Shown here one piece after another: positions 39,207 through 51,761 of a stretch of DNA of 51,761 nucleotides (the first letter of the stretch is position 1; the number at the start of each line of letters is the position of its first letter). This DNA comes from Candidatus Blautia excrementigallinarum. GTDB lineage: Bacteria; Bacillota; Clostridia; Lachnospirales; Lachnospiraceae. Below the pieces are notes generated by a model that saw only the letters and a program-made list of their open reading frames with translations, searched no databases and was not told the DNA's origin. Location: positions 1 through 51,761 of the forward strand of contig DWXL01000088.1 of NCBI GenBank assembly GCA_019119235.1, read 5' to 3'. Both the position numbers and the translations under genes were made by a program.

Positions 39207-40571
39207 TTATTCAGCCAAAGCGGCTTTTATCATGATCGCGCACTCCACTCGTTTCCGCTGAAGTTCGCATCCGATCTCATAACTGCCTTTAATATCGTTC
39301 TGGAAATGCCATGCGTTCGCCGCGCATCCGCCGCTGCAGTAAAATCTCGCGAAGCACTCCCGGCAGTCCTTCTTGGTATAAACGTTGCAGTCCTTAAATT
39401 CATCCTTCACTGCGGGACGGGTAATTCCTTCGTCCACATTTCCCATAAGGAACTTTTCTTCTCCCACGAACTGATGGCAGGGATAAAGATCGCCCCATGG
39501 GGTCACCGCAAGATATTCCGTGCCGGATCCGCATCCGGAAAGCCGTTTGTACACACACGGGCCTCCGGTAAGATCGATCATGAAATGGAAGAAATTAAAT
39601 CCCTTTCCCTCTTTTTCTCTTCTGATCATCTCTCTGGCAAGAATATCGTATTCCTCCAGGATCTTCGGAATATCTTCTTTCCGGATGGCATACTCTTCCG
39701 TATCCGCCGCCACCACAGGCTCTACAGAAATCTGTTTGAATCCCAGATCCGCAAGATGGAGCACATCCTTCGAGAAATCAAGATTATGGCGGGTAAAGGT
39801 ACCTCTCACATAATAATTCTCCTGATTTCTGGATTCCGCGAATTTAATGAACTTCGGCATAATGAGATCGTAGCTTCCCGCGCCTTTGCGGAACGGCCTC
39901 ATATAATCGTGAACTTCTTTCCGCCCGTCAACGCTGAGCACCACGTTGGACATTTCCCTGTTACAGAATTCCATCACTTCGTCGTTAAGGAGCACGCCGT
40001 TGGTAGTCAGTGTAAAACGGAATTTTTTATTATGAGCTTTCTCCTGCTCTCTTCCGTAACGTACAAGTTCTTTTACAACATCCCAGTTCATCAGAGGCTC
40101 GCCGCCGAAGAAATCCACTTCCAGGTTTCTTCTGGAACCGGAATTGGCGATCAGAAAATCAAGAGCTTTCTTCCCCGTCTCAAAAGACATCAGCGCGCGC
40201 CTTCCGTGATATTCTCCCTCCTCGGCGAAACAGTAACGGCAGGCAAGGTTACAGTCATGCGCAATGTGAAGACAAAGGGCTTTCACCACCGTCTGGCGGT
40301 TTTTGGTAAACTCATCAATGGCATTTTCATAAATGTCCTTTGTAAAGAGCATCCCCTCTTCTTTCAGTTTCTCACATTCTGCGGCAGAAGTCCGGATCTC
40401 CTCCGGGCGGAATCTGCCGCCGAGCTTCTCCACGATTTCATCAGCAGAAAGTCCCTCTTCAATATACGGAAGCGCTTCATAGGTGACCGTATCCACCAGA
40501 TGAATACATCCGCTGTTAATGTCCAGAACAATGTTATACCCATTGCTCTGATATCTGTGAATCAGACTCAT
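39207..40571 (-). CDS. scfB: SCIFF ranthipeptide radical SAM/SPASM maturase
   Basis: CNLACRYC, SPASM cysteines (GCGSG...PCHQF...CRECFARFYCSGGC); adjacent to the SCIFF peptide. Confidence 0.95.
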   Translation of the reverse strand: MSLIHRYQSNGYNIVLDINSGCIHLVDTVTYEALPYIEEGLSADEIVEKLGGRFRPEEIRTSAAECEKLKEEGMLFTKDIYENAIDEFTKNRQTVVKALCLHIAHDCNLACRYCFAEEGEYHGRRALMSFETGKKALDFLIANSGSRRNLEVDFFGGEPLMNWDVVKELVRYGREQEKAHNKKFRFTLTTNGVLLNDEVMEFCNREMSNVVLSVDGRKEVHDYMRPFRKGAGSYDLIMPKFIKFAESRNQENYYVRGTFTRHNLDFSKDVLHLADLGFKQISVEPVVAADTEEYAIRKEDIPKILEEYDILAREMIRREKEGKGFNFFHFMIDLTGGPCVYKRLSGCGSGTEYLAVTPWGDLYPCHQFVGEEKFLMGNVDEGITRPAVKDEFKDCNVYTKKDCRECFARFYCSGGCAANAWHFQNDIKGSYEIGCELQRKRVECAIMIKAALAE

Positions 40572-40648
40572 GTCTTCAAAATCCTTTCATTTGTCAGTTT
40601 TGGCTTTTAAACTGCGTACAGGATATCCTGATCTGTACAGCATAAGAA

Positions 40649-40676
40649 TAAGCAGCGGATTTCACCCCGCTGCTTA
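40649..40676 (-). terminator. Hairpin between scfA and scfB
   Basis: TAAGCAGCGG/CCGCTGCTTA stem with a short U tract. Confidence 0.6.
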
Positions 40677-40696
40677 ACTGTTCTTCTGTCCTGCGC

Positions 40697-40837
40697 TTAT
40701 TTATGCTCGCAGCTCTGATTTCCTACTGTACAGGAAGTCTTACATGCTGACTGGCAGGAAGTCTGGCACTCGCCGCATCCGCCTTTCTTAACAGTGTTCT
40801 GTAAGTTCTTTGTATTTAAGGTTTTGATATGTTCCAT
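40697..40837 (-). CDS. scfA: Six-cysteine ranthipeptide precursor SCIFF
   Basis: GGCGECQTSCQSACKTSCTVGNQSCE; AGGAGG RBS. Confidence 0.97.
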   Translation of the reverse strand: MEHIKTLNTKNLQNTVKKGGCGECQTSCQSACKTSCTVGNQSCEHK

Positions 40838-40931
40838 GCTATAGTCCTCCTTATGTATCGTTATCTCCGGATAGTATAGCATATTTTTCCGGTAAATAAA
40901 AGAGTTTTTTTACTGCCGGGCTTCCACATTT

Positions 40932-41338: not shown

Positions 41339-43141
41339 TTATTTTTTTCTTTTTCTGAGATATATGATCACAACAATAATCACAACCGCCGCCACAGCAA
41401 GAACTACAAACGGTGCGATCGGTGTGGTATCGCCGGTATTCACGGCATCTGTGGATTCGCCGCTGCTGTCCGTGTTCTCATTAGCGCTGTCCTGACTGCT
41501 TCCATCAGTATTTCTGCTGTCCGTACTTCCAGCGCTGTTTCCAGAAGATGCGGACGGGGTAACAGTACCAGAAGATGCACTGTTTCCATTATCTCCATCA
41601 GAAGATGACGGGGCAGGCGTCGCTGTTGCAGCCGGCGTTGTTTCATATCCGTCCGTTGCGATTTCTTCACCTACCAACGGTTTGCTTCCCGCAATGCCGA
41701 AAGGACTGAAAGAATGTGTGCTGAATACCATCGTGCTTCCGTTCACGCTGGGTACAATAGTCTCCATTGCACCGTTGTCCAGAAGATGCTCAATCGTATA
41801 TTCATATCCCTCTTTCACAGGAACCGTCACACTGATATATTCGCCGTCTGGAATCTCATATTCTGTGTTATTCTTCAGATCCCACAGTTCAAATTCGTAG
41901 GATTTGAAAATATTTGCTTCATTTTCGTTGGTAAATTCATAATCCTCGCCGCTGGTGGCACGGAACTGTACATACCAGGGAAGATTGATGCCTGACACAT
42001 AAATGCCGTTGCAGCTATGGTTGGCTTCCGCCATTGCGGCCGTCTCTTCTTCTGTAAATTCTTCTTCCTCTTCCACCTGGACAGGACGGTCATCCGTCTC
42101 TTCTTCCTCACGGTCGAAGATATCTTCCGGTGTTACAGTAGGTGTCGGCGTCGCTGTCACGGTGGCTTCCGGTGTTACGGTAACCCCGGGAACTTCCTCT
42201 GTATCGGATTCTTCTGTTTCAGCAGGCGTTACTGTCGGTTCAGGTGCTTCCTCTCCGCCGGGTGTTACCTCTGCGTCAGCTTCTTCTGTCTCCTCACCTG
42301 TCTCTGTTTCCGCCTTATCTTCTTCTGTTCCTTCTTCCTCTGTCCCGGCAGGCGTTACTGTCGGTTCAGGCTTTTCCTCTGCACCAGGTGTTGCCTCTGC
42401 GTCAGGCTCTTCTGTCTCCTCACCTGTCTCTGTTTCCGCCTTGTCTTCTTCTGTTCCGTCTTCTTCCGTTTCAGCAGGCGTTACTGTCGGTTCAGGTTTT
42501 TCCTCTGCACCAGGTGTTGTCTCTGTTTCAGGCTCTTCTGTCTCCTCACCTGTCTCTGTTTCCGCCTTGTCTTCTTCTGTCACGTCTTCTTCCGTTTCAG
42601 CAGGCGTTACTGTCGGTTCAGGCGTTTCCTCTGCACCAGATGTTGCCTCTGCGTCAGGCTCTTCTGTCTCCTCATCCGTCTCTGTTTCCATCCACTCTCC
42701 ATTGCTTCCGGAATCATCCTGAGATTCCTCTTCGGACCACTCCTCTTCATTCTCCTGGGATTCATTGTCCAGTCCGTTGACAACAACCGTCACTGTACCG
42801 TAAATGGCGTCAGAAACGCCGTCCCAGCCTGAGATCTTCGCAAGATCCGCTGAATTATAGGGACGGAACACGACATCATAGGACTGTACTCTCTCAGAGG
42901 GAACACTGGAACTGTTCACCCATGACAGCGTTCCATAATCGCTGCCCGGAAGGGATATCTCAGAAAGGGGAACCGGCTGGTCAATCGTTACATTATCCGG
43001 AATCAGGCTGCTGACCTGGATCTGTGTACTGTCGCCATGTACAGAAGCCGGCTGTATCTGCCCGGCCAGCAGGGCCGCGCTCAGTGCTGCAGCGGCAAAA
43101 AACTGTACATTCCTCTTTCTGTTGTTTCTTTTCCTCATCAT
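41339..43141 (-). CDS. Sortase-anchored surface protein with acidic tandem repeats
   Basis: Signal peptide; 40-aa E/T/P repeats; FSTHSFSPF; C-terminal VNTGD + TM + RKRKK. Confidence 0.85.
   Translation of the reverse strand: MMRKRNNRKRNVQFFAAAALSAALLAGQIQPASVHGDSTQIQVSSLIPDNVTIDQPVPLSEISLPGSDYGTLSWVNSSSVPSERVQSYDVVFRPYNSADLAKISGWDGVSDAIYGTVTVVVNGLDNESQENEEEWSEEESQDDSGSNGEWMETETDEETEEPDAEATSGAEETPEPTVTPAETEEDVTEEDKAETETGEETEEPETETTPGAEEKPEPTVTPAETEEDGTEEDKAETETGEETEEPDAEATPGAEEKPEPTVTPAGTEEEGTEEDKAETETGEETEEADAEVTPGGEEAPEPTVTPAETEESDTEEVPGVTVTPEATVTATPTPTVTPEDIFDREEEETDDRPVQVEEEEEFTEEETAAMAEANHSCNGIYVSGINLPWYVQFRATSGEDYEFTNENEANIFKSYEFELWDLKNNTEYEIPDGEYISVTVPVKEGYEYTIEHLLDNGAMETIVPSVNGSTMVFSTHSFSPFGIAGSKPLVGEEIATDGYETTPAATATPAPSSSDGDNGNSASSGTVTPSASSGNSAGSTDSRNTDGSSQDSANENTDSSGESTDAVNTGDTTPIAPFVVLAVAAVVIIVVIIYLRKRKK
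42205..42688 (-). repeat. About four 120-bp coding tandem repeats
   Basis: CAGGCGTTACTGTCGGTTCAGG recurs with ~120-bp period. Confidence 0.9.
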
Positions 43142-43334
43142 ATCCACACCTCTGTTTATATTCAAACAATCTGATTATCTATCATTCGACTTTTAATATA
43201 TCAAAGCTTTATCGTTTTGTAAATATTTTGTAACATTTTATTTCTTTTTACGACGCCCATATTATAACACAGTTCCCTTTTTTTCGACACCCCTAAAATA
43301 ATATTTCTTCGATAATACATCTCTTTATTGATTA

Positions 43335-43931
43335 TCATTTTTTATCCATCATAAGCGAGAATTGTCTGATAATTCTTGTCGCTTCACCGGTAACAGCGTC
43401 AACTCCCAGTTCCGTCTGATTCCAGTTGCTTTTCGTGATCCCATCGGGAAAAGAAGGGCAGACAAGGAATTCTGTCTCCGGATAGACATACTGAAAATAC
43501 ATCAGGACGCGCCGCGCGTGATGGGATTTGCAGCAGAGAATGGCCTTTTTTACGGATAACCCGGCCTTTTCGGTAACCTCCCTGGAAAAAAGAGCGTTTT
43601 CATACGTATAGGTCGCCCTGTCTTCCCTTAAGATATCTTCCGGCTTTACCCCGTTTTTTACCAGAACATCCCGGAGAAATTCCCATTCTGTCTCATAAGA
43701 TCCATGATATTTCTCCTTTTCGGAAAGTACCCCGCTGAAACGGCCCGTGGTGATACTGTATTTCCCGCTTGGCAGGACGGCAGGCGCATAACCTTCTCTG
43801 TAAAGTTCAGCCGCTTTTTCCGCCATATGGGGGTAACCGTTGCCCGGAACAAATATGATATCCGCCTTTTCCGGTCTGTTTTCAACAAAAATAAATTCCT
43901 CTGTTTTTTTCAAAAAATCATTATAATCCAT
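43335..43931 (-). CDS. YdcF/DUF218-family protein
   Basis: ADIIFVPG, SG, EDRATYTYENA, HARR. Confidence 0.85.
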   Translation of the reverse strand: MDYNDFLKKTEEFIFVENRPEKADIIFVPGNGYPHMAEKAAELYREGYAPAVLPSGKYSITTGRFSGVLSEKEKYHGSYETEWEFLRDVLVKNGVKPEDILREDRATYTYENALFSREVTEKAGLSVKKAILCCKSHHARRVLMYFQYVYPETEFLVCPSFPDGITKSNWNQTELGVDAVTGEATRIIRQFSLMMDKK

Positions 43932-43948: not shown

Positions 43949-44683
43949 CTACTTTGTAACTATTACTGTACTGTATCCCTCGTCTCTCAGACGCTGTTCC
44001 ATATTTACGGCATTCCCCAGCTGCTGAAACGCTCCTGCCTGCACTTTGTACAGATCATTCTGATGGAGAAGATACGCCGGATATCCCTGATCCATCAGCT
44101 GATACAGCATACGGTCCGCGTTTTCCCTGTTTTGGAAAGCTCCGGTCTGCACGCGGTAATAAACCGGCGCCTCTATGGTTTCCTCCGTCAACGTGCCGAG
44201 GATCGCTCCGGCGATACTCTGTGCGGTTTCTTTTAAGTTTTCGTCATACAGATCATTATCACCGTCAGAATTTATAAATCCGGTTTCCACAAGAAGCGCC
44301 GGCATTTTGGTTCTGCGAAGGACCACAAGCCCGGGCCGTTCCTTCACTCCCAGCTCCCTGAAACCAAGTTCGCCCAGAGCGCCTACGATATTTTCCGCCA
44401 TGTCGAATTTGATCCCGTTCTTATCGTAGACCAGAACTTCCACTCCTTCATACTGATTATCGGACGGACTGCTGTTCCTGTGAAAAGAAATAAAATAATC
44501 GGCTCCCGACTCGTTTGCAAGCCTTGCCTTTTCAAAAGGCGTCTGATAAACGTCGGTGGTCCTTGTATAGACCACATCGATTCCGTTCTCTTCCAGGATC
44601 TTCCCTACTTCCAGGGTAAGCTCCAGATTATCGTCTTTTTCCTGCCGTCCCTTGTAGACGGCCCCCGGATCTGTTCCTCCATG
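43949..44683 (-). CDS. 3' portion of a split CwlC-like N-acetylmuramoyl-L-alanine amidase (Amidase_3 + SPOR)
   Basis: HGGTDPGA...EKDDNL, SFHRN, LVETGFI, two YRVQTGAF/YKVQAGAF SPOR repeats; lacks its first beta strand and has no RBS. Confidence 0.92.
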   Translation of the reverse strand, partial: HGGTDPGAVYKGRQEKDDNLELTLEVGKILEENGIDVVYTRTTDVYQTPFEKARLANESGADYFISFHRNSSPSDNQYEGVEVLVYDKNGIKFDMAENIVGALGELGFRELGVKERPGLVVLRRTKMPALLVETGFINSDGDNDLYDENLKETAQSIAGAILGTLTEETIEAPVYYRVQTGAFQNRENADRMLYQLMDQGYPAYLLHQNDLYKVQAGAFQQLGNAVNMEQRLRDEGYSTVIVTK

Positions 44684-44703
44684 TGCAGGAAGCAGTCTGC
44701 GCA
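44674..44703 (-). repeat. att site at the 3' amidase fragment (core plus arm)
   Basis: Minus strand TGCGCAGACTGCTTCCTGC-ACATGGAGGAA. Confidence 0.85.
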
Positions 44704-44722
44704 AAACGCACAGACTGCTTCC
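44688..44722 (-). terminator. Hairpin after the pit/DUF47 operon overlapping the att arm
   Basis: GGAAGCAGTCTG...CAGACTGCTTCC; no clear U tract. Confidence 0.45.
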
Positions 44723-44765
44723 CTGTTCCGGGTATGATATTCTGAGCAAATCCCATACTCCGGCG

Positions 44766-45389
44766 TTATGAATTTTTCATTACTACGTTCTGCACAGTGT
44801 CGGCCACATGCTCGCAGGCATCCGCGCAGTTTTCCATGTAATTATAAATCTCTCTCCAGGCGATGATCTTAAGCGGATCCGGCTCTGTTTCATGAAGCTT
44901 TCTCATGCTGGAGACAAAGAGACGGTCTGCTTCCTCCTCAAGTTCATTGATGCGGATGATCCTCGACTTAAGGGTTTTGGAATGACGGAAATCAGCGAAA
45001 TCTTTCATCATATTCTTCATTTCCTCACAGCATCTGGACACCACGTCCATCAGTTCCACCGCGTCCTCATGGATTTCCTGAACATTATTGATATAAAGGC
45101 GGAGCAGGACGTCCTCCAGCTTATCAACCACCTCGTCGATATTGTCTCCCAGAGAAGCGATATCTTCTCTCTCAATGGGAACGATAAACGCTCTCGCCAG
45201 ATTGTCCATGATCTGATGTCTTTTTTGATCCGCCGTATGTTCAACCTTATGAATCTCATCCATACACTTACTGATATCTTCCGGTCTGAAGTTTTCCAGG
45301 GAACGCTTCAGCAGCTGGGCAGCCTCGCAGGAAGCCTCCGCGCTTTCGATAAATTTCTCAAAATAGAACATATCCTGTTTCTTTGACAT
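44766..45389 (-). CDS. DUF47 (PhoU-like) phosphate transport regulator
   Basis: EHTAD, FIVPIEREDI, LEEEAD; downstream of pit. Confidence 0.9.
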   Translation of the reverse strand: MSKKQDMFYFEKFIESAEASCEAAQLLKRSLENFRPEDISKCMDEIHKVEHTADQKRHQIMDNLARAFIVPIEREDIASLGDNIDEVVDKLEDVLLRLYINNVQEIHEDAVELMDVVSRCCEEMKNMMKDFADFRHSKTLKSRIIRINELEEEADRLFVSSMRKLHETEPDPLKIIAWREIYNYMENCADACEHVADTVQNVVMKNS

Positions 45390-45407
45390 TGTTTAATCCT
45401 CCGTAAT

Positions 45408-46460
45408 TTAAAAGATGTACATAAAAAGCTTGGCCATTACAAAACTGATCAGTCCGCATCCCGGGAAGGTAAAGATCCATGTGAGCATCATATCCTTGAC
45501 AACCGAAAAGTTAATTGCCGAAAGACGTCTCACCGCGCCCACACCCATAATAGAACTTGTCTTCGTATGTGTGGTGGATACCGGGATACCAAATACGCTG
45601 GAAAGCAGAAGGCAGAAAGCTCCCGCAAGGTCTGCGGCAAATCCTTGATATTTCTCAAGTTTAACCATATCCATACCTACGGATTTAATAATCTTCTCTC
45701 CGCCGACGCTGGTTCCCAGAGCCATGACAACACTGCAGAGCAGCATCAGCCAGACCGGGATCTGCATGCCTGAAACTTCATTCTGTCCGTTGGAAAAAGC
45801 GATCCCCAGAAACAGAACGCCGATAAATTTCTGGCCGTCCTGCGCACCGTGCATGAAACTCATAGCCGCCGCACCGACAATCTGCGCATAGTTAAAGAAC
45901 CCGTTGGCTTTCCGGCGGTCAAGATTCTGACATAAAACAGTAAGCAGTTTACAGATCACCCAGCCGCTGGCAAAACCGAGAGCAAGGCTGAGAACAAGAC
46001 CGTAAAGGACCTTGACCCACTCGCCCATATTAACGCCGCCGATTCCCTGCTGGATAGCGATCGCCGCTCCCGTAAGACCTGCGATCAGGCTGTGGCTCTC
46101 ACTGGTGGGAATACCGAAAACAGAAGCACCCACACTGTATACCACAATAGAAAACAGGGCCGCGCACAAGGCGATCATCGCGTCGTTGGTGCTGGTCCCG
46201 AAATCCACCATGTTGCTTATGGTGGACGCAACGGCACTGTTGATATTGGTCATTACAAATACTCCGAGAAAATTGAAGGCCGCGCTCATCCAGATAGCGC
46301 TGCGTACCCCCATACATCTGGTAGTCACACAGGTGGCAATGGCATTGGGCGCATCTGTCCATCCGTTTACAAAAATAACTCCCAGAGTCAGAAGCGTTGT
46401 GATACAGAGCGCAGGATTAGACGTAATCTGCTGCCAGAAATATGAAAATGATATGTCCAT
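45408..46460 (-). CDS. PiT-family inorganic phosphate transporter
   Basis: NGWTDAPNAIAT, PTSESH, HGAQDGQK, PVSTTH. Confidence 0.92.
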   Translation of the reverse strand: MDISFSYFWQQITSNPALCITTLLTLGVIFVNGWTDAPNAIATCVTTRCMGVRSAIWMSAAFNFLGVFVMTNINSAVASTISNMVDFGTSTNDAMIALCAALFSIVVYSVGASVFGIPTSESHSLIAGLTGAAIAIQQGIGGVNMGEWVKVLYGLVLSLALGFASGWVICKLLTVLCQNLDRRKANGFFNYAQIVGAAAMSFMHGAQDGQKFIGVLFLGIAFSNGQNEVSGMQIPVWLMLLCSVVMALGTSVGGEKIIKSVGMDMVKLEKYQGFAADLAGAFCLLLSSVFGIPVSTTHTKTSSIMGVGAVRRLSAINFSVVKDMMLTWIFTFPGCGLISFVMAKLFMYIF

Positions 46461-46485
46461 TAAATTTTATCTCCCTGTATTTTAA

Positions 46486-47151
46486 TTATAGTGATTCCTC
46501 AAACCTGTCAATATTGTTTACCTTTCCGATCACTACCATGATATCATCCGGCTGCAGGCGGTAGGACGGCGAGATTTCAATATTTGTAGTCCTGTCATTC
46601 TCAATCGCAATAATGTTCAGGTTGTATTTCGGACGGATTCCCAGTTCCTCAATACTGTGGCCGATAATCTTATCCGAAATCCTGATCTGACGTATCTCCA
46701 CACTGTTGTCCAGAGATACATAATCGAGGAAGTTCCTGGAAACCAGCCTTTTGCCGAGGCGAAGAGCCATATCTCTTTCGGGATAGACAACTTCCGCGCC
46801 GATCTTCTTCAGCACAGCTCCCTGCTCTTCGCTGATGGCTTTCGCGATTACTTTGGGAACGCCCAGCTCCACCACTCTCATGGTCGTGAGGATGGAAATA
46901 TCCACCTTCTCGCCAATGCAGACGATCACCACATCGCAGTTCTGTAACCCGATCTCTCTCAGGGTTTCCAGACTCAGATCATCTGATACAAAAGCATACT
47001 CCGTATACTGGCGCACCTCTTTGACCTTGCTCTCGCTCCGGTCCACGACGATTACCTCCTTGCCGGCCTCGGCCAGAGAAATCGCAAGCGCCGTACCGAA
47101 ACGGCCCAGTCCGATGATTCCAAAAGAAGTGGCTTCATTATTCTTTTTCAT
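46486..47151 (-). CDS. ktrA: KtrA/TrkA-family K+ uptake regulatory subunit
   Basis: IIGLGRFG RCK_N, PERDMA, RCK_C. Confidence 0.88.
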   Translation of the reverse strand: MKKNNEATSFGIIGLGRFGTALAISLAEAGKEVIVVDRSESKVKEVRQYTEYAFVSDDLSLETLREIGLQNCDVVIVCIGEKVDISILTTMRVVELGVPKVIAKAISEEQGAVLKKIGAEVVYPERDMALRLGKRLVSRNFLDYVSLDNSVEIRQIRISDKIIGHSIEELGIRPKYNLNIIAIENDRTTNIEISPSYRLQPDDIMVVIGKVNNIDRFEESL

Positions 47152-47210
47152 TTTATTTACCTGTATGTGTCCTGCACATATTTCCTTTCTGAATAAATAT
47201 TCTTATCTTA

Positions 47211-48527
47211 TCAGCCGATAGATACTGTTTCCTCCGTGAAATGAGCACGGGGTTCCGGATGATCGATCCACATGGACAGAAGCGTAACCGCGCCAAGTCT
47301 TCCGATAAACATGATCAGGATAATCACCAGCTTGCTTCCGTCGCACAGATCCGGCGTGATTCCGGTGGAAAGTCCCACGGTACCAAACGCGGAGACCACC
47401 TCAAACAGAACCTGCATAAAACTGTACTGCGGATCCATGACGCAAAGCAGGAAACTTCCCACACACACCACCGACATGGATAAAAGTGTGATGATGGAAG
47501 CGCTGGCTACCGTTCCCCTGGAAATCGCCCTGCGGAACGCGCCTACCTGTTTCTTATTGAACATGGCTCTCGCTTCCTGGAGCAGGACGAAAAATGTAGT
47601 CGTCTTGATACCTCCACCGGTAGATCCCGGGGACGCGCCGATAAACATAAGCACGCAGAGCACAAACAGTCCGGCATTGGTAAAGCTTCCAATGGGATAT
47701 GTGGAAAATCCCGCCGTTCTGGCTGATACGCTGTGGAAAAAGGCGCCCAGCCAGGTAACGTCCTCCGTCGCTTTCAGAAGAAGCGTTCCGACAACCAGAA
47801 GCACTGCCGTTGTGGTAATGACGATCTTGGAATGCAGCATCAGTTTTTTGAATCTTCTGTTGCTGATAATGTCGCGGATTACCAGGAATCCCAGACCGCC
47901 GAAAATGATCAGGATACAGGTGATCATATTCAGAAGCACATTGTCCCTGTACGGGATCAGGTTCTGAAGTCCTCCCAGAATATCGAAGCCCGAGTTGTTA
48001 AAGGCTGCGATAGAATGGAAGATACTGATACCCAGTGCATGTACAGGCGGATAATCCTGTACAAATACAATAAAACTCAGTACTGCGCCGGCGCCCTCGA
48101 AACACAGTGTCGTGAGAAGCACCGCCTTGATCAGTTTAACGATACCCTTATAACTGTTGACGTTCAGCGCCTCGCTGACCATGACTCTGGTCTTTATGCT
48201 GACACGTTTCTTGATCGCAAGCATGAATCCCACGCCCACAGAAGTCACTCCCAGACCTCCGATCTGGATCAGCGCCGCAACGACGCCCTGCCCGAAGGGG
48301 GTGAAATGATCCGCTGTATCAATCGCGATCAGACCTGTCACACAGACCGCGCTGGTAGATGTAAACAGCGCGTCAATGGGTCTTACCGTTACGCCGTCCC
48401 TTACAGATACCGGCAGGAGCAGGATCAGAGCTCCCAGAATAATCACTGTGGCGAAACCCAGAGTGATCAGACGTCCGGGCGGCTGTTTCTTAAGTCCGTT
48501 TATGAAATTTTCGAATATTGTTTTCAT
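47211..48527 (-). CDS. ktrB: KtrB/TrkH-family K+ uptake membrane subunit
   Basis: SAVCVTGL, FNNSGF, RTAGF, SPGSTGGGIK, FGTVGLSTG. Confidence 0.9.
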   Translation of the reverse strand: MKTIFENFINGLKKQPPGRLITLGFATVIILGALILLLPVSVRDGVTVRPIDALFTSTSAVCVTGLIAIDTADHFTPFGQGVVAALIQIGGLGVTSVGVGFMLAIKKRVSIKTRVMVSEALNVNSYKGIVKLIKAVLLTTLCFEGAGAVLSFIVFVQDYPPVHALGISIFHSIAAFNNSGFDILGGLQNLIPYRDNVLLNMITCILIIFGGLGFLVIRDIISNRRFKKLMLHSKIVITTTAVLLVVGTLLLKATEDVTWLGAFFHSVSARTAGFSTYPIGSFTNAGLFVLCVLMFIGASPGSTGGGIKTTTFFVLLQEARAMFNKKQVGAFRRAISRGTVASASIITLLSMSVVCVGSFLLCVMDPQYSFMQVLFEVVSAFGTVGLSTGITPDLCDGSKLVIILIMFIGRLGAVTLLSMWIDHPEPRAHFTEETVSIG

Positions 48528-48570
48528 TTTTTTATGTCCTTGCTGTCTTACTAATCACTTTTTATTATGT

Positions 48571-49005
48571 TCACGCAAAAACAGCATATCCATTTTTGCC
48601 GTCCTTTTTGAACAGGATCAGTAATTCCCGCAAAAAACGGGCGCAAAGAAATATAGCAGGCTGAAAGCAGGCAAAAAAACGCTCCTCTCTGGGAACATTA
48701 AGCAGCCGCCTCCTGCTCACAAGAACTGTCAGAACAGCAAAACCCAAAAGTCCGTTGGAAAACGGACGCTTCGCCAGCCTGGCAGGTCCCACATACAGTA
48801 TCAGTGGAAAATTCGCCACCGCCTCAGTCTCTGATATATAACAGAGCGAAAGGTCATCATCTTCTCCGCCGTCAGATCCCGGCAACGCGGTGTCTTCTGT
48901 CATTACAGCTTCTTTCGGACAGAACACGGCATTGTCCGTTATCAGTAAACAGAGCACAGCCAGCATGCAGACAAGTATCAGGCTGTGATGAAATTTCCCG
49001 TTCAC
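48571..49005 (-). CDS. Hypothetical small membrane-associated protein
   Basis: Strong AAAGGAG RBS before GTG; hydrophobic N-terminus; first gene after a sigmaA promoter. Confidence 0.55.
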   Translation of the reverse strand: MNGKFHHSLILVCMLAVLCLLITDNAVFCPKEAVMTEDTALPGSDGGEDDDLSLCYISETEAVANFPLILYVGPARLAKRPFSNGLLGFAVLTVLVSRRRLLNVPREERFFACFQPAIFLCARFLRELLILFKKDGKNGYAVFA

Positions 49006-49035
49006 AGTATTTTCTCCTTTCCGTCAATTATCTAA

Positions 49036-49064
49036 AAAATAACATCACCTCACCTATTTGTCAA
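49036..49064 (-). promoter_or_regulatory. sigmaA promoter for the element's cargo genes
   Basis: TTGACA-N17-TATTTT with TG extension. Confidence 0.55.
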
Positions 49065-50712
49065 TACTGGTTCTTTCGCCTTCCGTAAACCCACAGTTTC
49101 CTTCGTCCGCCGCAAACCGGTAATAAATTTTCAACTGTCTCTTATCCTGTACTTCAATTCTGCTGATCATTTTCAACACAATATCTCTTTTCAGGGCGCC
49201 CGTCCGGATACGGGTCTTCAGATCCTCCGCAGCAGAACCTGAGGCCGCGTATTCTGCCGCGCACGGAACGGTTCTGTCTCCTCTTTCTTTTTGAAGACTT
49301 TGCAGCCTGAATGTGTATAATTCCGTTTTTTTCTCATAATCAGCGCGGCAGGACAGAAATTCCTCCCTGGTAAGCAGGCCCTCCCTGTAGTCTTCGTATA
49401 CATGGCGGCCGAGTCTCCTTACTTTTTCAAGGTCTTTTCTGAGCCGGTTCTCCTCCATGCCGTCACGCCCTGCGTCTTCATTCATCATACGTCGGATCTC
49501 ATCTCTGTACGATCCCGCGCAGTCCAGCAGAGTGCAGAGGTCGGCCTTCACCGCCTCCTCCAGGATCCTGAAATCCGTCCTGTGAGGACTGCAGAAAACC
49601 CGCCCGTTCCGTTTGTATGTTCCACAGTACAGCACGGCCGCACTGCTTCCGTCCGCTCTGCGCCAGCTGTTCCGTATCATGGAACTTCCGCAGGTTCCGC
49701 ATCTGGCCAGCCCGGCAAAAACATTTCGCACAGACACAGCGCTATAACTTCTCCGGTTCACTGTCATCTGCTCCTGGACAGTCTTCCAAAGTTCTCTGTC
49801 TATAAGAGGCTCATGAGTGTTCTCCACACGGATCCAGTCGCAACGGGGCACGGCCCTCTGACACCCCCGCATCTTCTGGGTCTTTTTCCCCTGCACCATG
49901 GTTCCGGTATACATCTCATTGCGCAGAATCTGATGGACCGCTGAATACGTCCAGCCCCGTCCCGGAATTTCTCCGGGATTACAGTAATTCTCGCCCTTCA
50001 GCCTTTTGTATGCGGAAGGCGAGGGAACCGACTCCCTGTTAAGCGTTTTTGCGATCTCCGACTTGGACATTCCGTCTGCGTAAAGTAAAAAAATCCGCCT
50101 TACTATCCCCGCAGCATAAGGATCCGGCGCCAGCCTGTTCCCTGCTCCGGGACATTTCCTGTAACCGTAGCAGGCAAATGCTCCCACAAATTCGCCGGCT
50201 TCCTGTTTTGCCTTTACTGCGGCATGTATTTTTACAGAAATGTCCCGGGCGTACTGCTCGTTAAAAATATTTTTCAGCGGAAGGAGTAGATCATAGGACT
50301 TTTCCCTGCTGTCAATGTCATCGATAAGAGAAATAAAACGAACACCTTTTCCGGGAAAATATTTTTCCAGATATCTTCCTGTCTCAATATAATCTCTTCC
50401 GAACCTTGAAAGGTCCTTAACGATCACACAGTTTACTTTTTTATCTTCAATGTCCCGGATCATACGCCTGAATCCGGGTCTTTCAAAGCTCGTTCCCGAA
50501 TAACCGTCGTCCACGTAAACGTCCCGGACCGTTATTTCAGCGTTTCTTTCAACAAATCCAAAAAGCAGCTTCTTCTGATTCCCTACGCTGTCGCTCTCTT
50601 CTTTATCCCCGTCCTCCCTGGAGAGACGGATATAGAGCGCCGCCCGGTAGAGAGCCGATGAAAAAGCCTCTTCTGTTCCGCCGCCGTATCGAAATGCCGA
50701 AGCGCCGCTCAT
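49054..50712 (-). CDS. Large serine recombinase (resolvase + recombinase + Zn ribbon)
   Basis: YIRLSRED, DDGYSG, KDLSRFGR, CGTCG...CGTY...C Zn ribbon, coiled coil; ATGA overlap with the upstream ORF. Confidence 0.95.
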   Translation of the reverse strand: MSGASAFRYGGGTEEAFSSALYRAALYIRLSREDGDKEESDSVGNQKKLLFGFVERNAEITVRDVYVDDGYSGTSFERPGFRRMIRDIEDKKVNCVIVKDLSRFGRDYIETGRYLEKYFPGKGVRFISLIDDIDSREKSYDLLLPLKNIFNEQYARDISVKIHAAVKAKQEAGEFVGAFACYGYRKCPGAGNRLAPDPYAAGIVRRIFLLYADGMSKSEIAKTLNRESVPSPSAYKRLKGENYCNPGEIPGRGWTYSAVHQILRNEMYTGTMVQGKKTQKMRGCQRAVPRCDWIRVENTHEPLIDRELWKTVQEQMTVNRRSYSAVSVRNVFAGLARCGTCGSSMIRNSWRRADGSSAAVLYCGTYKRNGRVFCSPHRTDFRILEEAVKADLCTLLDCAGSYRDEIRRMMNEDAGRDGMEENRLRKDLEKVRRLGRHVYEDYREGLLTREEFLSCRADYEKKTELYTFRLQSLQKERGDRTVPCAAEYAASGSAAEDLKTRIRTGALKRDIVLKMISRIEVQDKRQLKIYYRFAADEGNCGFTEGERTSIDK

Positions 50713-50912
50713 CTTCCCGCCCCGGTTTCCGCTTCTGTGAAATGCTTCTCCCGATCCCCACATCCGTCTGCCGGATCCATTCCGCCGTTTTCTCCGGCAG
50801 AAGCAGACAATCCGCCATAACTTCTATATATATAGGAAATCATTTCTCCGGCTGTGATCTCTCCGAGAAAAATCCTCTCGATTCTGTATGGTTCCTGCGG
50901 TCTTTCCTTCAT
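50709..50912 (-). CDS. Small protein translationally coupled to the recombinase (candidate directionality factor)
   Basis: MKERPQEPYRIERIFLGEIT..., 67 aa; AAAGGGG RBS; stop overlaps the recombinase ATG. Confidence 0.55.
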   Translation of the reverse strand: MKERPQEPYRIERIFLGEITAGEMISYIYRSYGGLSASAGENGGMDPADGCGDREKHFTEAETGAGR

Positions 50913-50980
50913 ATTCTGTCCCCTTTCTTTCCTGATACAGTAGAAACAATACCCGGTCATTCAGGATGTTTTCTGATGAC

Positions 50981-51010
50981 AGAATATGCCGCAATTCCTG
51001 TCCATTATGC
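50981..51010 (-). promoter_or_regulatory. Sporulation-sigma-like promoter for the small ORF and recombinase
   Basis: GCATAAT-N15-CATATTCT, resembling the B. subtilis sigmaE consensus. Confidence 0.5.
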
Positions 51011-51079
51011 TGATTCAGAGAAAAATCTGCGCAGACTGTTTCCTCCATGTCCCGCGTCAAGCATAATTTTGTACGCCAT
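51005..51079 (-). CDS. 5' portion of the split amidase (MAYKIMLDAGHGG, then 11 element-derived codons and a stop)
   Basis: GGGAGG RBS; textbook Amidase_3 N-terminus xIMLDAGHGG; too short for the ORF track. Confidence 0.9.
   Translation of the reverse strand: MAYKIMLDAGHGGNSLRRFFSESA
51028..51050 (-). repeat. att site at the 5' amidase fragment (core plus arm)
   Basis: Minus strand ACATGGAGGAA-ACAGTCTGCGCA. Confidence 0.85.
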
Positions 51080-51118
51080 CGCCAATTCCTCCCTGCATTA
51101 CTTTTATAGGTTATTTAT

Positions 51119-51126
51119 AATATATG
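51119..51126 (-). promoter_or_regulatory. Mother-cell sigma (sigmaK/sigmaE)-like -10 for the amidase
   Basis: CATATATT about 40 nt upstream of the ATG; -35 not clear. Confidence 0.45.
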
Positions 51127-51165: not shown

Positions 51166-51761
51166 TCATTCTTCCGGATACGTACCCTGATGTTCACCGG
51201 AAAGCGCGCACATGGCAAAGGTTCCGCTCTCCCTGTCGTAGCGGTAAATATTAAGAGTCAGAAAATCTTCCGGCGGCGTGGTCTCCCTCACAGTATCCGC
51301 CAGAACCAGTCTGAGATCTTCCGGATCAACGCATGACGCACGGTGTATCATAACTTCATGAATACTGGTAAACACCATGTAGAAACTGTCTTCCAGAAGA
51401 GCCGCGATCCTCTCCGCCACGCCGGGAAGGAAGACCGCCGCGGCGCCGTTCGTCCTCTTTGTAGTACTCAGGCAGTTCCCCATAACGCCTTTCCGGAGCG
51501 GATAATCGGACAACAGATTCATAAAGTTGTCGCCTTCATAGCTTTCGGAAAAAAGCATCTTCTCCCACTGGTAGATCCTGGGCGGAGAAAGAAAATAGGT
51601 GTTCACCAGCGCTTCGTCAAATACTTCGTCCCTGTCCTTCCCCCATCTTTCGAGCAGCGGCTCCCGTATCTTCATACTTGCCATACAGCCGGATACTTCT
51701 CCCATGCGGGCATAGAGCACCAGCGCAATATCACCCAGCCTCCTGTAAACCGCATTCTCCA
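51166..51761 (-). CDS. DUF5688-like hypothetical protein (5' end outside the window)
   Basis: TNGAAAVF, SIHEVMIH and FLTLNIYRYDRE patterns; frame stays open to the window end. Confidence 0.65.
   Translation of the reverse strand, partial: ENAVYRRLGDIALVLYARMGEVSGCMASMKIREPLLERWGKDRDEVFDEALVNTYFLSPPRIYQWEKMLFSESYEGDNFMNLLSDYPLRKGVMGNCLSTTKRTNGAAAVFLPGVAERIAALLEDSFYMVFTSIHEVMIHRASCVDPEDLRLVLADTVRETTPPEDFLTLNIYRYDRESGTFAMCALSGEHQGTYPEE

Follow-up and report, generated by a model that had tools for sequence, protein, structure and literature searches.

Several mobile elements have been described that interrupt a sporulation gene and are removed from it by a serine recombinase. The skin element in sigK of Bacillus subtilis (Skr and SpoIVCA) combines such a recombinase with a small overlapping upstream open reading frame (ORF) under sigma-E and rebuilds a mother-cell gene without a scar, according to the sections of PMC6957869 and PMC517825 used here. 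For the gin element in gerE of Bacillus cereus ATCC 10987 (GirC and the 42-aa GirX), which is not a phage, the relevant passages of PMC5595907 describe an imperfect inverted repeat around a central dinucleotide, an asymmetric host site and a tiny directionality factor. In skinCd of C. difficile (CD1231 and CD1234) the directionality factor is under sigma-E and SpoIIID (PMC5025042, in the part cited). SPbeta (spsM), phi3T (kamA), vfbin (spoVFB), vrin (spoVR) and yin (yabG) are further examples; all of them are phages or phage-like, and the portions of their descriptions drawn upon name no amidase target. Abe et al. 2013 reportedly list further interrupted sporulation genes. Here, we analyze a stretch of 51,761 nucleotides, in the following called the window, from Candidatus Blautia excrementigallinarum (assembly GCA_019119235.1, contig DWXL01000088.1), in which a cell-wall amidase gene is split by a 6,366-bp element that encodes a large serine recombinase. 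We consider it likely that this element is excised in the sporulating mother cell upon a sigma-E trigger and that a 254-aa late amidase is thereby rebuilt, the spore keeping the element.

By analogy the element would work like skin and gin; new would be the amidase target, the origin from a conjugative element and the use of several paralogues by one recombinase. With skin it shares a serine recombinase and a small overlapping upstream ORF, and scarless rebuilding is proposed likewise. Skin, however, is a defective prophage of 48 kb that interrupts the gene of a sigma factor, whereas the window's element has 6.4 kb, is not a phage and lies within an amidase gene; its excision we infer. The likeness to gin extends to the inverted repeat around a central dinucleotide, the asymmetric host site and a candidate for the tiny directionality factor. 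However, gin has another target gene, three recombinases and a length of 28.6 kb, whereas members of the present family range from conjugative elements down to forms of 1.8 kb and lie in several paralogues. The domains of the recombinase are the same as in skinCd. The skinCd recombinase is made constitutively, with its factor encoded apart (as far as its description was drawn upon), whereas recombinase and small ORF of the window appear to share one promoter.

The gene split is real. All features of the amidase gene, its flanks and the element are read on the minus strand. The 5' fragment comprises ten codons (MAYKIMLDAG, 51050..51079, with ATG at 51079) behind a ribosome-binding site GGGAGG (51088..51093) and a CATATATT box (51119..51126). 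The 3' part (43949..44683) has 244 codons starting with histidine; its translation is recognised by the Amidase_3 profile, with the match beginning at position 7 (E 1e-38), and by that of SPOR (E 3e-13). In alignments with solved amidases the first residue of this part falls on His10 of CwlV (1jwq) and, in two further structures, on residues 12-13; the SPOR part at the C-terminus matches PDB 1x60, a sporulation-specific amidase. The sequence ACATGGAGGAA is found at 44674-44684 and again at 51040-51050, at an offset of 6,366 bp and with an in-register identity of exactly 11 bp. If these 6,366 bp are removed and the ends joined, a 765-nt frame for 254 aa with the N-terminus MAYKIMLDAG-HGGTDPGA results, i.e. 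the amidase frame is restored exactly, and the rebuilt protein matches the intact orthologues of congeners. This bears out the original prediction with respect to the Amidase_3 match without N-terminus, the missing residues upstream, the ribosome-binding site and box in front of them, the shared repeat and the large serine recombinase between the halves. The repeat alone is weak evidence, because the same 11-mer has six copies across the 2.18-Mb genome. Nevertheless, a chance repeat is rejected in view of the symmetric element ends and of empty sites with the same flanks in relatives, and an assembly artefact in view of contigs from separate runs that cross both junctions. Two other Amidase_3 genes of the host genome are unbroken.

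The element ends suggest where the strands are exchanged. The whole element (44684..51049) is defined by the offset of the two attachment (att) cores and by four relatives (L002, L005, L009, L019) in which the site is empty between the same flanks. In the attL core (51040..51050) the predicted crossover dinucleotide CA occupies 51049-51048, in the attR core (44674..44684) 44683-44682, within the codon of a histidine that we take to be a zinc ligand. The inner left arm (51028..51047) is 90% complementary to the inner right arm (44684..44703) as an inverted repeat, and each would form one half of the predicted attP; the predicted circle junction is symmetric in 19 of 22 positions and centred on the CA. 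Altogether 31 elements could be closed (from fetched loci, four congeners and the window; 1,776-9,200 bp, larger ones exceeding the 10-kb flank). Symmetry is best about the CA of the His codon in all 31, where it averages 13.7/20 as compared with 5.3/20 at the rebuilt host site; four of them have ends that share the CA alone, which places the crossover there. The original prediction had recombination occur between the 11-bp repeats with the break at the first zinc-ligand His codon; the His-codon break stands, but the crossover is most likely the CA and not the whole repeat, which is also rejected as determinant of specificity.

The recombinase ORF (569 aa) contains Resolvase, Recombinase and Zn-ribbon domains (PF00239, PF07508, PF13408), and its YxRxS motif and four cysteines are invariant in 26 aligned sequences. 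Its start is more likely the ATG at 50712 (552 aa, 49054..50712), which overlaps the stop of an upstream small ORF of 67 aa (50709..50912). A homologue of this small ORF is found just upstream of the recombinase at 83 of 83 loci (76 by the pattern YxVERxFLxKxSxEELLxRII, the rest by a profile built from those; L102 was excluded as its recombinase start is missing). In a survey of 250 genomes across the family (about one per genus) matches occurred in 15, and all 16 matches adjoin recombinase-like sequence, two of these broken. Neither Pfam nor the protein atlas holds a family for the small protein, a candidate recombination directionality factor.

Recombinase and small ORF are predicted to be under a sigma-E-type promoter (50981..51008), consisting of ATA (51008-51006), 17 nt that include a conserved GGACAG box, and CATATTCT (50988-50981). 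Deduplication at 80% leaves 38 loci, of which 29 carry the motif GGA(T/C/A)A(A/G)-N8-10-(C/T)(A/G)TA upstream of the small ORF (shuffled sequences give a mean of 1.1 and a maximum of 5), and at 28 of these 29 an ATA, outside the search pattern, lies 16-18 nt before the CATA box. ATA as -35 and CATA as -10 form the sigma-E signature (PMC3789822 and PMC3416734, in the parts used). A promoter-matrix scan of the host's own genome gave five matches, of which the best was the element's own and the sole convincing one. Among host-genus orthologues of sigma-E genes ATA-N16-18-(C/T)(A/G)TA precedes yqfC in 4 of 5 and spoIIID in 7 of 8 cases, and four genes together in 16 of 22, a loose pattern counted without shuffle control.

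The amidase itself may be a CwlC-like mother-cell sporulation gene. CATAnnnT is conserved upstream of the orthologous starts in 37 of 38 alleles (shuffles: mean 5.0, maximum 12), with no clear -35, so the CATATATT box is predicted to be a -10 of the mother-cell sigma (E/K) type; a common -10 box of sigma-E and sigma-K is described in the relevant part of PMC3789822. As in B. subtilis CwlC, Amidase_3 is followed by a C-terminal SPOR domain; in contrast with CwlC, the label given to the window's amidase rests on this domain order and the promoter form. In B. subtilis CwlC and CwlH lyse the mother cell (PMC517825, in the part cited). The host has spo0A and spoIIIAA over the cut-off as well as an unbroken sigK-like gene and a spoIVA-like gene, which indicates genetic potential for endospores only. 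Two near-equal partial spoIVA matches stand at the starts of contigs C218 and C15 of this genome (G000), perhaps through strain mixing in the assembly.

Both halves of the amidase gene are under purifying selection. In 20 split-split pairs from two clades the ratio of nonsynonymous to synonymous substitution rates (dN/dS) amounts to 0.02-0.09 as compared with a median of 0.047 in intact pairs (n=10), and the proportion of nonsynonymous differences (pN) of split amidases is only 0.05-0.09. In the ten 5' codons of the window's clade (window, L032, L047) there are 10 synonymous and no nonsynonymous differences over three pairs; the second clade shows two conservative changes. Four further split alleles, with the same cargo order, form a group with the amidase of the window (L004 and L032 counted once). 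In nine distant pairs the proportion of synonymous differences (pS) is 0.51-0.77 for the cargo versus 0.67-0.72 for the amidase. This like divergence means that element and host gene have probably descended together and that the split is long-standing; together with the selection on both halves it argues for regular rebuilding, as a gene that stayed broken would not be expected to show such selection. Recombinases of cargo-free 2-kb elements are also under purifying selection (dN/dS 0.13-0.19), and for the C-terminal part of the recombinase in the window's closest pair the ratio is 0.33.

Relatives carry intact and interrupted alleles. At a cut-off of E 1e-30 the amidase was matched in 32 of 36 same-genus genomes and in none of 24 genomes of other families. 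Among the 33 genomes with the gene (own included) it is intact in 26 and split at the same codon in seven. In the intact relatives the genes for DUF5688, the amidase and DUF218 are adjacent and no cargo is present; the same neighbours flank the split gene of the window (DUF5688 at 51166..51761, DUF218 at 43335..43931). The original prediction had concluded that spore release is gated by a DNA rearrangement. This goes too far, since a lineage with mostly intact genes does not need the split and no obligatory gate can be meant; the distribution rather suggests a mobile element that could remove itself in a doomed cell. The nearest named record belongs to an uncultured Blautia (L102, amidase 98% identical), and most of the public runs that match best come from chicken gut metagenomes.

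The wider family was surveyed in the best 80 of 241 recombinase relatives from genome contigs. A split amidase half flanks the recombinase at 75 of the 80 loci (74 by pattern, L042 by tblastn; one false 3' half, in L108 at 13330, was dropped) and is lacking at five (L052, L059, L080, L084, L094). By our own motif labels 34 targets are CwlC-like, 19 CwlD-like, nine belong to a third paralogue and two are other, with 16 left without label. One clade of 21 loci has recombinases of at least 97% identity, yet hits at least four amidase kinds, in records named Blautia, Dorea, Eubacterium, Thomasclavelia and Erysipelotrichaceae; one recombinase type uses several amidase paralogues. Large members (L055, L058, L062, L063, L068) contain genes for TcpE, a VirB4-like ATPase, TcpC, NlpC/P60, FtsK, DUF961 and Rep_trans, and in front of the small ORF they have a gene for a sigma70-region-4 regulator; the smallest (about 1.8 kb) have the small ORF and the recombinase only. 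These large members share transfer genes with Tn916/ICEBs1-type elements, but the family integrates by a site-specific large serine recombinase in an amidase codon. Dozens of further gut-bacterial genomes carry a related element in the same codon. Cultured-strain records with family members are those of Blautia producta DSM 2950, Blautia faecis, Fusicatenibacter saccharivorans and Thomasclavelia saccharogumia DSM 17460. At L041:11598-11608 and L108:11560-11584 the recombinase frame crosses the right junction, and its last codons would change on excision. A 2.8-kb amidase element carries a RelB/ParE toxin-antitoxin pair (L071:9017-9651). The conserved small ORF, the sigma-E-type promoter, the symmetric ends and this widespread family are new with respect to the original prediction.

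From these features the following course can be proposed. An ancestor, probably a conjugative element of Tn916 type, would have integrated at the CA of the DxG-HGG codons. Growing cells and the spore chromosome would keep the element, with its cargo for potassium and phosphate uptake read from a housekeeping promoter. After asymmetric division sigma-E, perhaps tuned by SpoIIID, would transcribe the small ORF and the recombinase; the small protein would turn the recombinase to excision, and attL and attR would recombine at the CA to release a 6,366-bp circle. The rebuilt gene would then be read from its own mother-cell promoter, and its product would probably help in mother-cell lysis. Such a site would cost the host little and the element would be passed on through the spore.

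Products of excision were searched for in 8 of 24 listed public runs (four DNA-type, four RNA), all as assembled contigs. The skin-like programmed excision of the original prediction gains from att symmetry, the candidate directionality factor, the sigma-E-type promoter, selection and the host's sporulation genes, but excision itself was not seen, and this is the first of several points that weigh against it. The rejoined gene (joint 44684 to 51050) was absent from the contigs of the eight runs. The circle junction, searched for with a motif that suits the window and the widespread conjugative clade, though not every family member, had no match in metagenome contigs versus 118 integrated right ends seen (about 380 estimated), and viral contigs gave one unrelated phage match only. 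Contigs drop rare forms, so these negatives fit rare terminal excision and no excision alike and speak only against abundant constitutive excision. Furthermore, nine of the 38 loci lack the promoter motif by the search pattern, and the host genome, which is 78% complete, yielded no spoIIID. The recombinases of L074 and L078 are cut short, so that decayed members exist. A 2,132-bp element with both ends (L115:6804-8936, genome G015) splits the amidase gene and has a chemotaxis-receptor gene only, with a related recombinase without N-terminus elsewhere in that genome; excision in trans or a dead gene are both possible there. Sister-host recombinases are about 52% identical as compared with 80-94% for cargo or amidase, and with this excess divergence replacement or repeated insertion may have taken place. 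Finally, many dS values are saturated and the ratios thus rough, and the loci are related and the counts not independent. An RNA contig that ends at 44673 beside the core was not used as a sign of rejoining, as strain variants explain it equally well, nor were RNA contigs of three runs in which the cargo is covered with thinning near 48900-49150, as contigs cannot rank genes.

It is rather unlikely, but the best of the alternatives, that excision is not tied to sporulation and that a conjugative-element remnant leaves at low frequency or under stress, the amidase being made by the few cells that lose it. The Tn916-type transfer genes and the sigma70-region-4 regulator of the large members do need vegetative excision, and yin of C. 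botulinum is excised at all time points (PMC10747680, in the part cited). The window's element, however, has no relaxase, coupling protein, transfer or regulator genes and still keeps the sigma-E-type motif. Moreover, an element that often left vegetative cells' chromosomes as a non-replicating circle would be lost, but cargo and amidase have co-diverged to synonymous saturation, and the circle junction is absent from bulk metagenome contigs.

Quite improbable is a developmental excision with another trigger, i.e. sigma-K or a late factor, or with the conserved box as a repressor site, and so with a timing unlike that of skin. The -10 box is common to both sigma factors, and the variant GGAAAAGC of the element's box also precedes host-genus sigK genes, where GGAAAAGCAC-N14-18-CATA is conserved at 20 of 25 loci (L123, L131-L154), although the box lies upstream of the -35 at sigK and between -35 and -10 in the element. 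Against this, the ATA that stands 16-17 nt from the -10 in 28 of the 29 motif loci fits sigma-E and not the AC of sigma-K. According to the passages used, SpoIIID activates sigK and spoIVCA in B. subtilis (PMC517825) and likewise CD1234 in C. difficile (PMC5025042); the conserved box is at most a tentative SpoIIID site by its consensus, for which PMC517825 gives logos only. None of the 25 matched sigK genes of the genus has a skin-like break.

That no excision occurs and the amidase is dead, or made from the 3' part via a start inside the element end (an active amidase from the 3' fragment being a contrary case that the original prediction itself had raised), is very improbable, for despite an in-frame TTG at 44749 in the window (266 aa), the failure to see the rejoined form in contigs and the unbroken 3' part beside the recombinase-less L115 element, the 15 split 3' parts share no in-frame start before the His and three have none at all, this His is preceded by 9-12 residues in the Amidase_3 domains of known structure, the 5' fragment, ribosome-binding site and promoter box are conserved 6.4 kb away, and dN/dS of split alleles equals that of intact genes.

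Under sigma-E-triggered excision in the mother cell, programmed gene rebuilding in sporulation would extend to cell-wall amidases of common gut commensals, and a full series from a transferable conjugative element to a cargo-free 1.8-kb unit would exist at one codon. Split genes would be annotated as pseudogenes, so the sporulation gene content of gut bacteria may be undercounted. In addition, recombinase, candidate directionality factor and att sites come as a matched set in the family, whose near-identical recombinases accept very different host sites. As the original prediction had supposed, full-text literature searches yielded no description of an intervening element in an amidase gene, though tables and subscription papers could hold one. 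The word "amidase" is absent from the main text of PMC5595907, PMC10747680, PMC4191935, PMC10083194 and PMC6957869. In the part of Durrant et al. used, a supplementary GO table has five amidase-annotated targets without enrichment, and the sites are in the database and not discussed.

The cargo of the element follows the recombinase. A predicted housekeeping promoter (TTGACA-17-TATTTT, 49036..49064) has 10 of 12 matches, a type of motif whose overall count is not above shuffles. Behind it lie an ORF for 144 aa without Pfam or NCBIfam match (48571..49005; homologues in L032, L047, L102 and L111) and genes for a TrkH/KtrB-type potassium uptake protein (47211..48527; PF02386, TIGR00933), a TrkA/KtrA-type subunit (46486..47151; PF02254, PF02080), a PiT-family phosphate transporter (45408..46460; PF01384) and a DUF47/PhoU-like protein (44766..45389; PF01865). 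A search of the 78%-complete genome at E 1e-10 gave no further copy of the split amidase or the cargo genes. Directly after the operon the right arm and its inverted copy form a 16-pair hairpin (44687..44723), and the 101-nt region that spans it contains two hairpins and has a z of -6.4. In all five clade members examined (window, L032, L047, L102, L111) this hairpin has 15-19 pairs with differing sequences and no U-tail; it is possibly a terminator, an extra recombinase site or both. Among the element ORFs, all accounted for with Pfam and NCBIfam, there are no phage structural or replication genes, and phage and plasmid collections hold no close recombinase (best 38% and 37%, respectively), so a prophage identity is rejected. 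In addition, the element's left end has no DNA match in the plasmid collection, and neither small ORF nor amidase half occurs at 80 viral-contig loci.

A second sporulation gene is interrupted in several of the genomes. At four loci (L165-L168; G017:C19, G023:C11, G010:C54, G024:C20) elements of 5-14 kb split spoIIID after KSTVH/KSTIH. Their large serine recombinase is another one, with about 25% identity to that of the window, and they lack a small-ORF homologue; one has a Wadjet-like operon as cargo (L166:4229-10808). The spoIIID halves are on separate contigs in G015, G019 and G030. At L169 (G029:C44:43093-43677) about 350 bp with a short ORF separate a spoIIID 5' half from a complete spoIIID behind it, an arrangement that is possibly an element remnant or a duplication. 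In G023 both spoIIID and the amidase gene are split. As a tentative and on balance doubtful extension, gut Lachnospiraceae could use an ordered chain of mother-cell excisions, in which a recombinase family for DxG-HGG DNA splits several amidase paralogues and is controlled through a promoter box, possibly for SpoIIID, that the host sigK has too; in G023 one excision would then have to precede the next.

Further along the window an acidic, repeat-rich predicted surface protein of 608 aa without Pfam match (41339-43165) is kept beside the locus in relatives. At 39207-40882 an ORF for a 61-aa Cys-rich peptide is followed by a radical-SAM-type ORF, presumably the SCIFF pair common in Clostridia.

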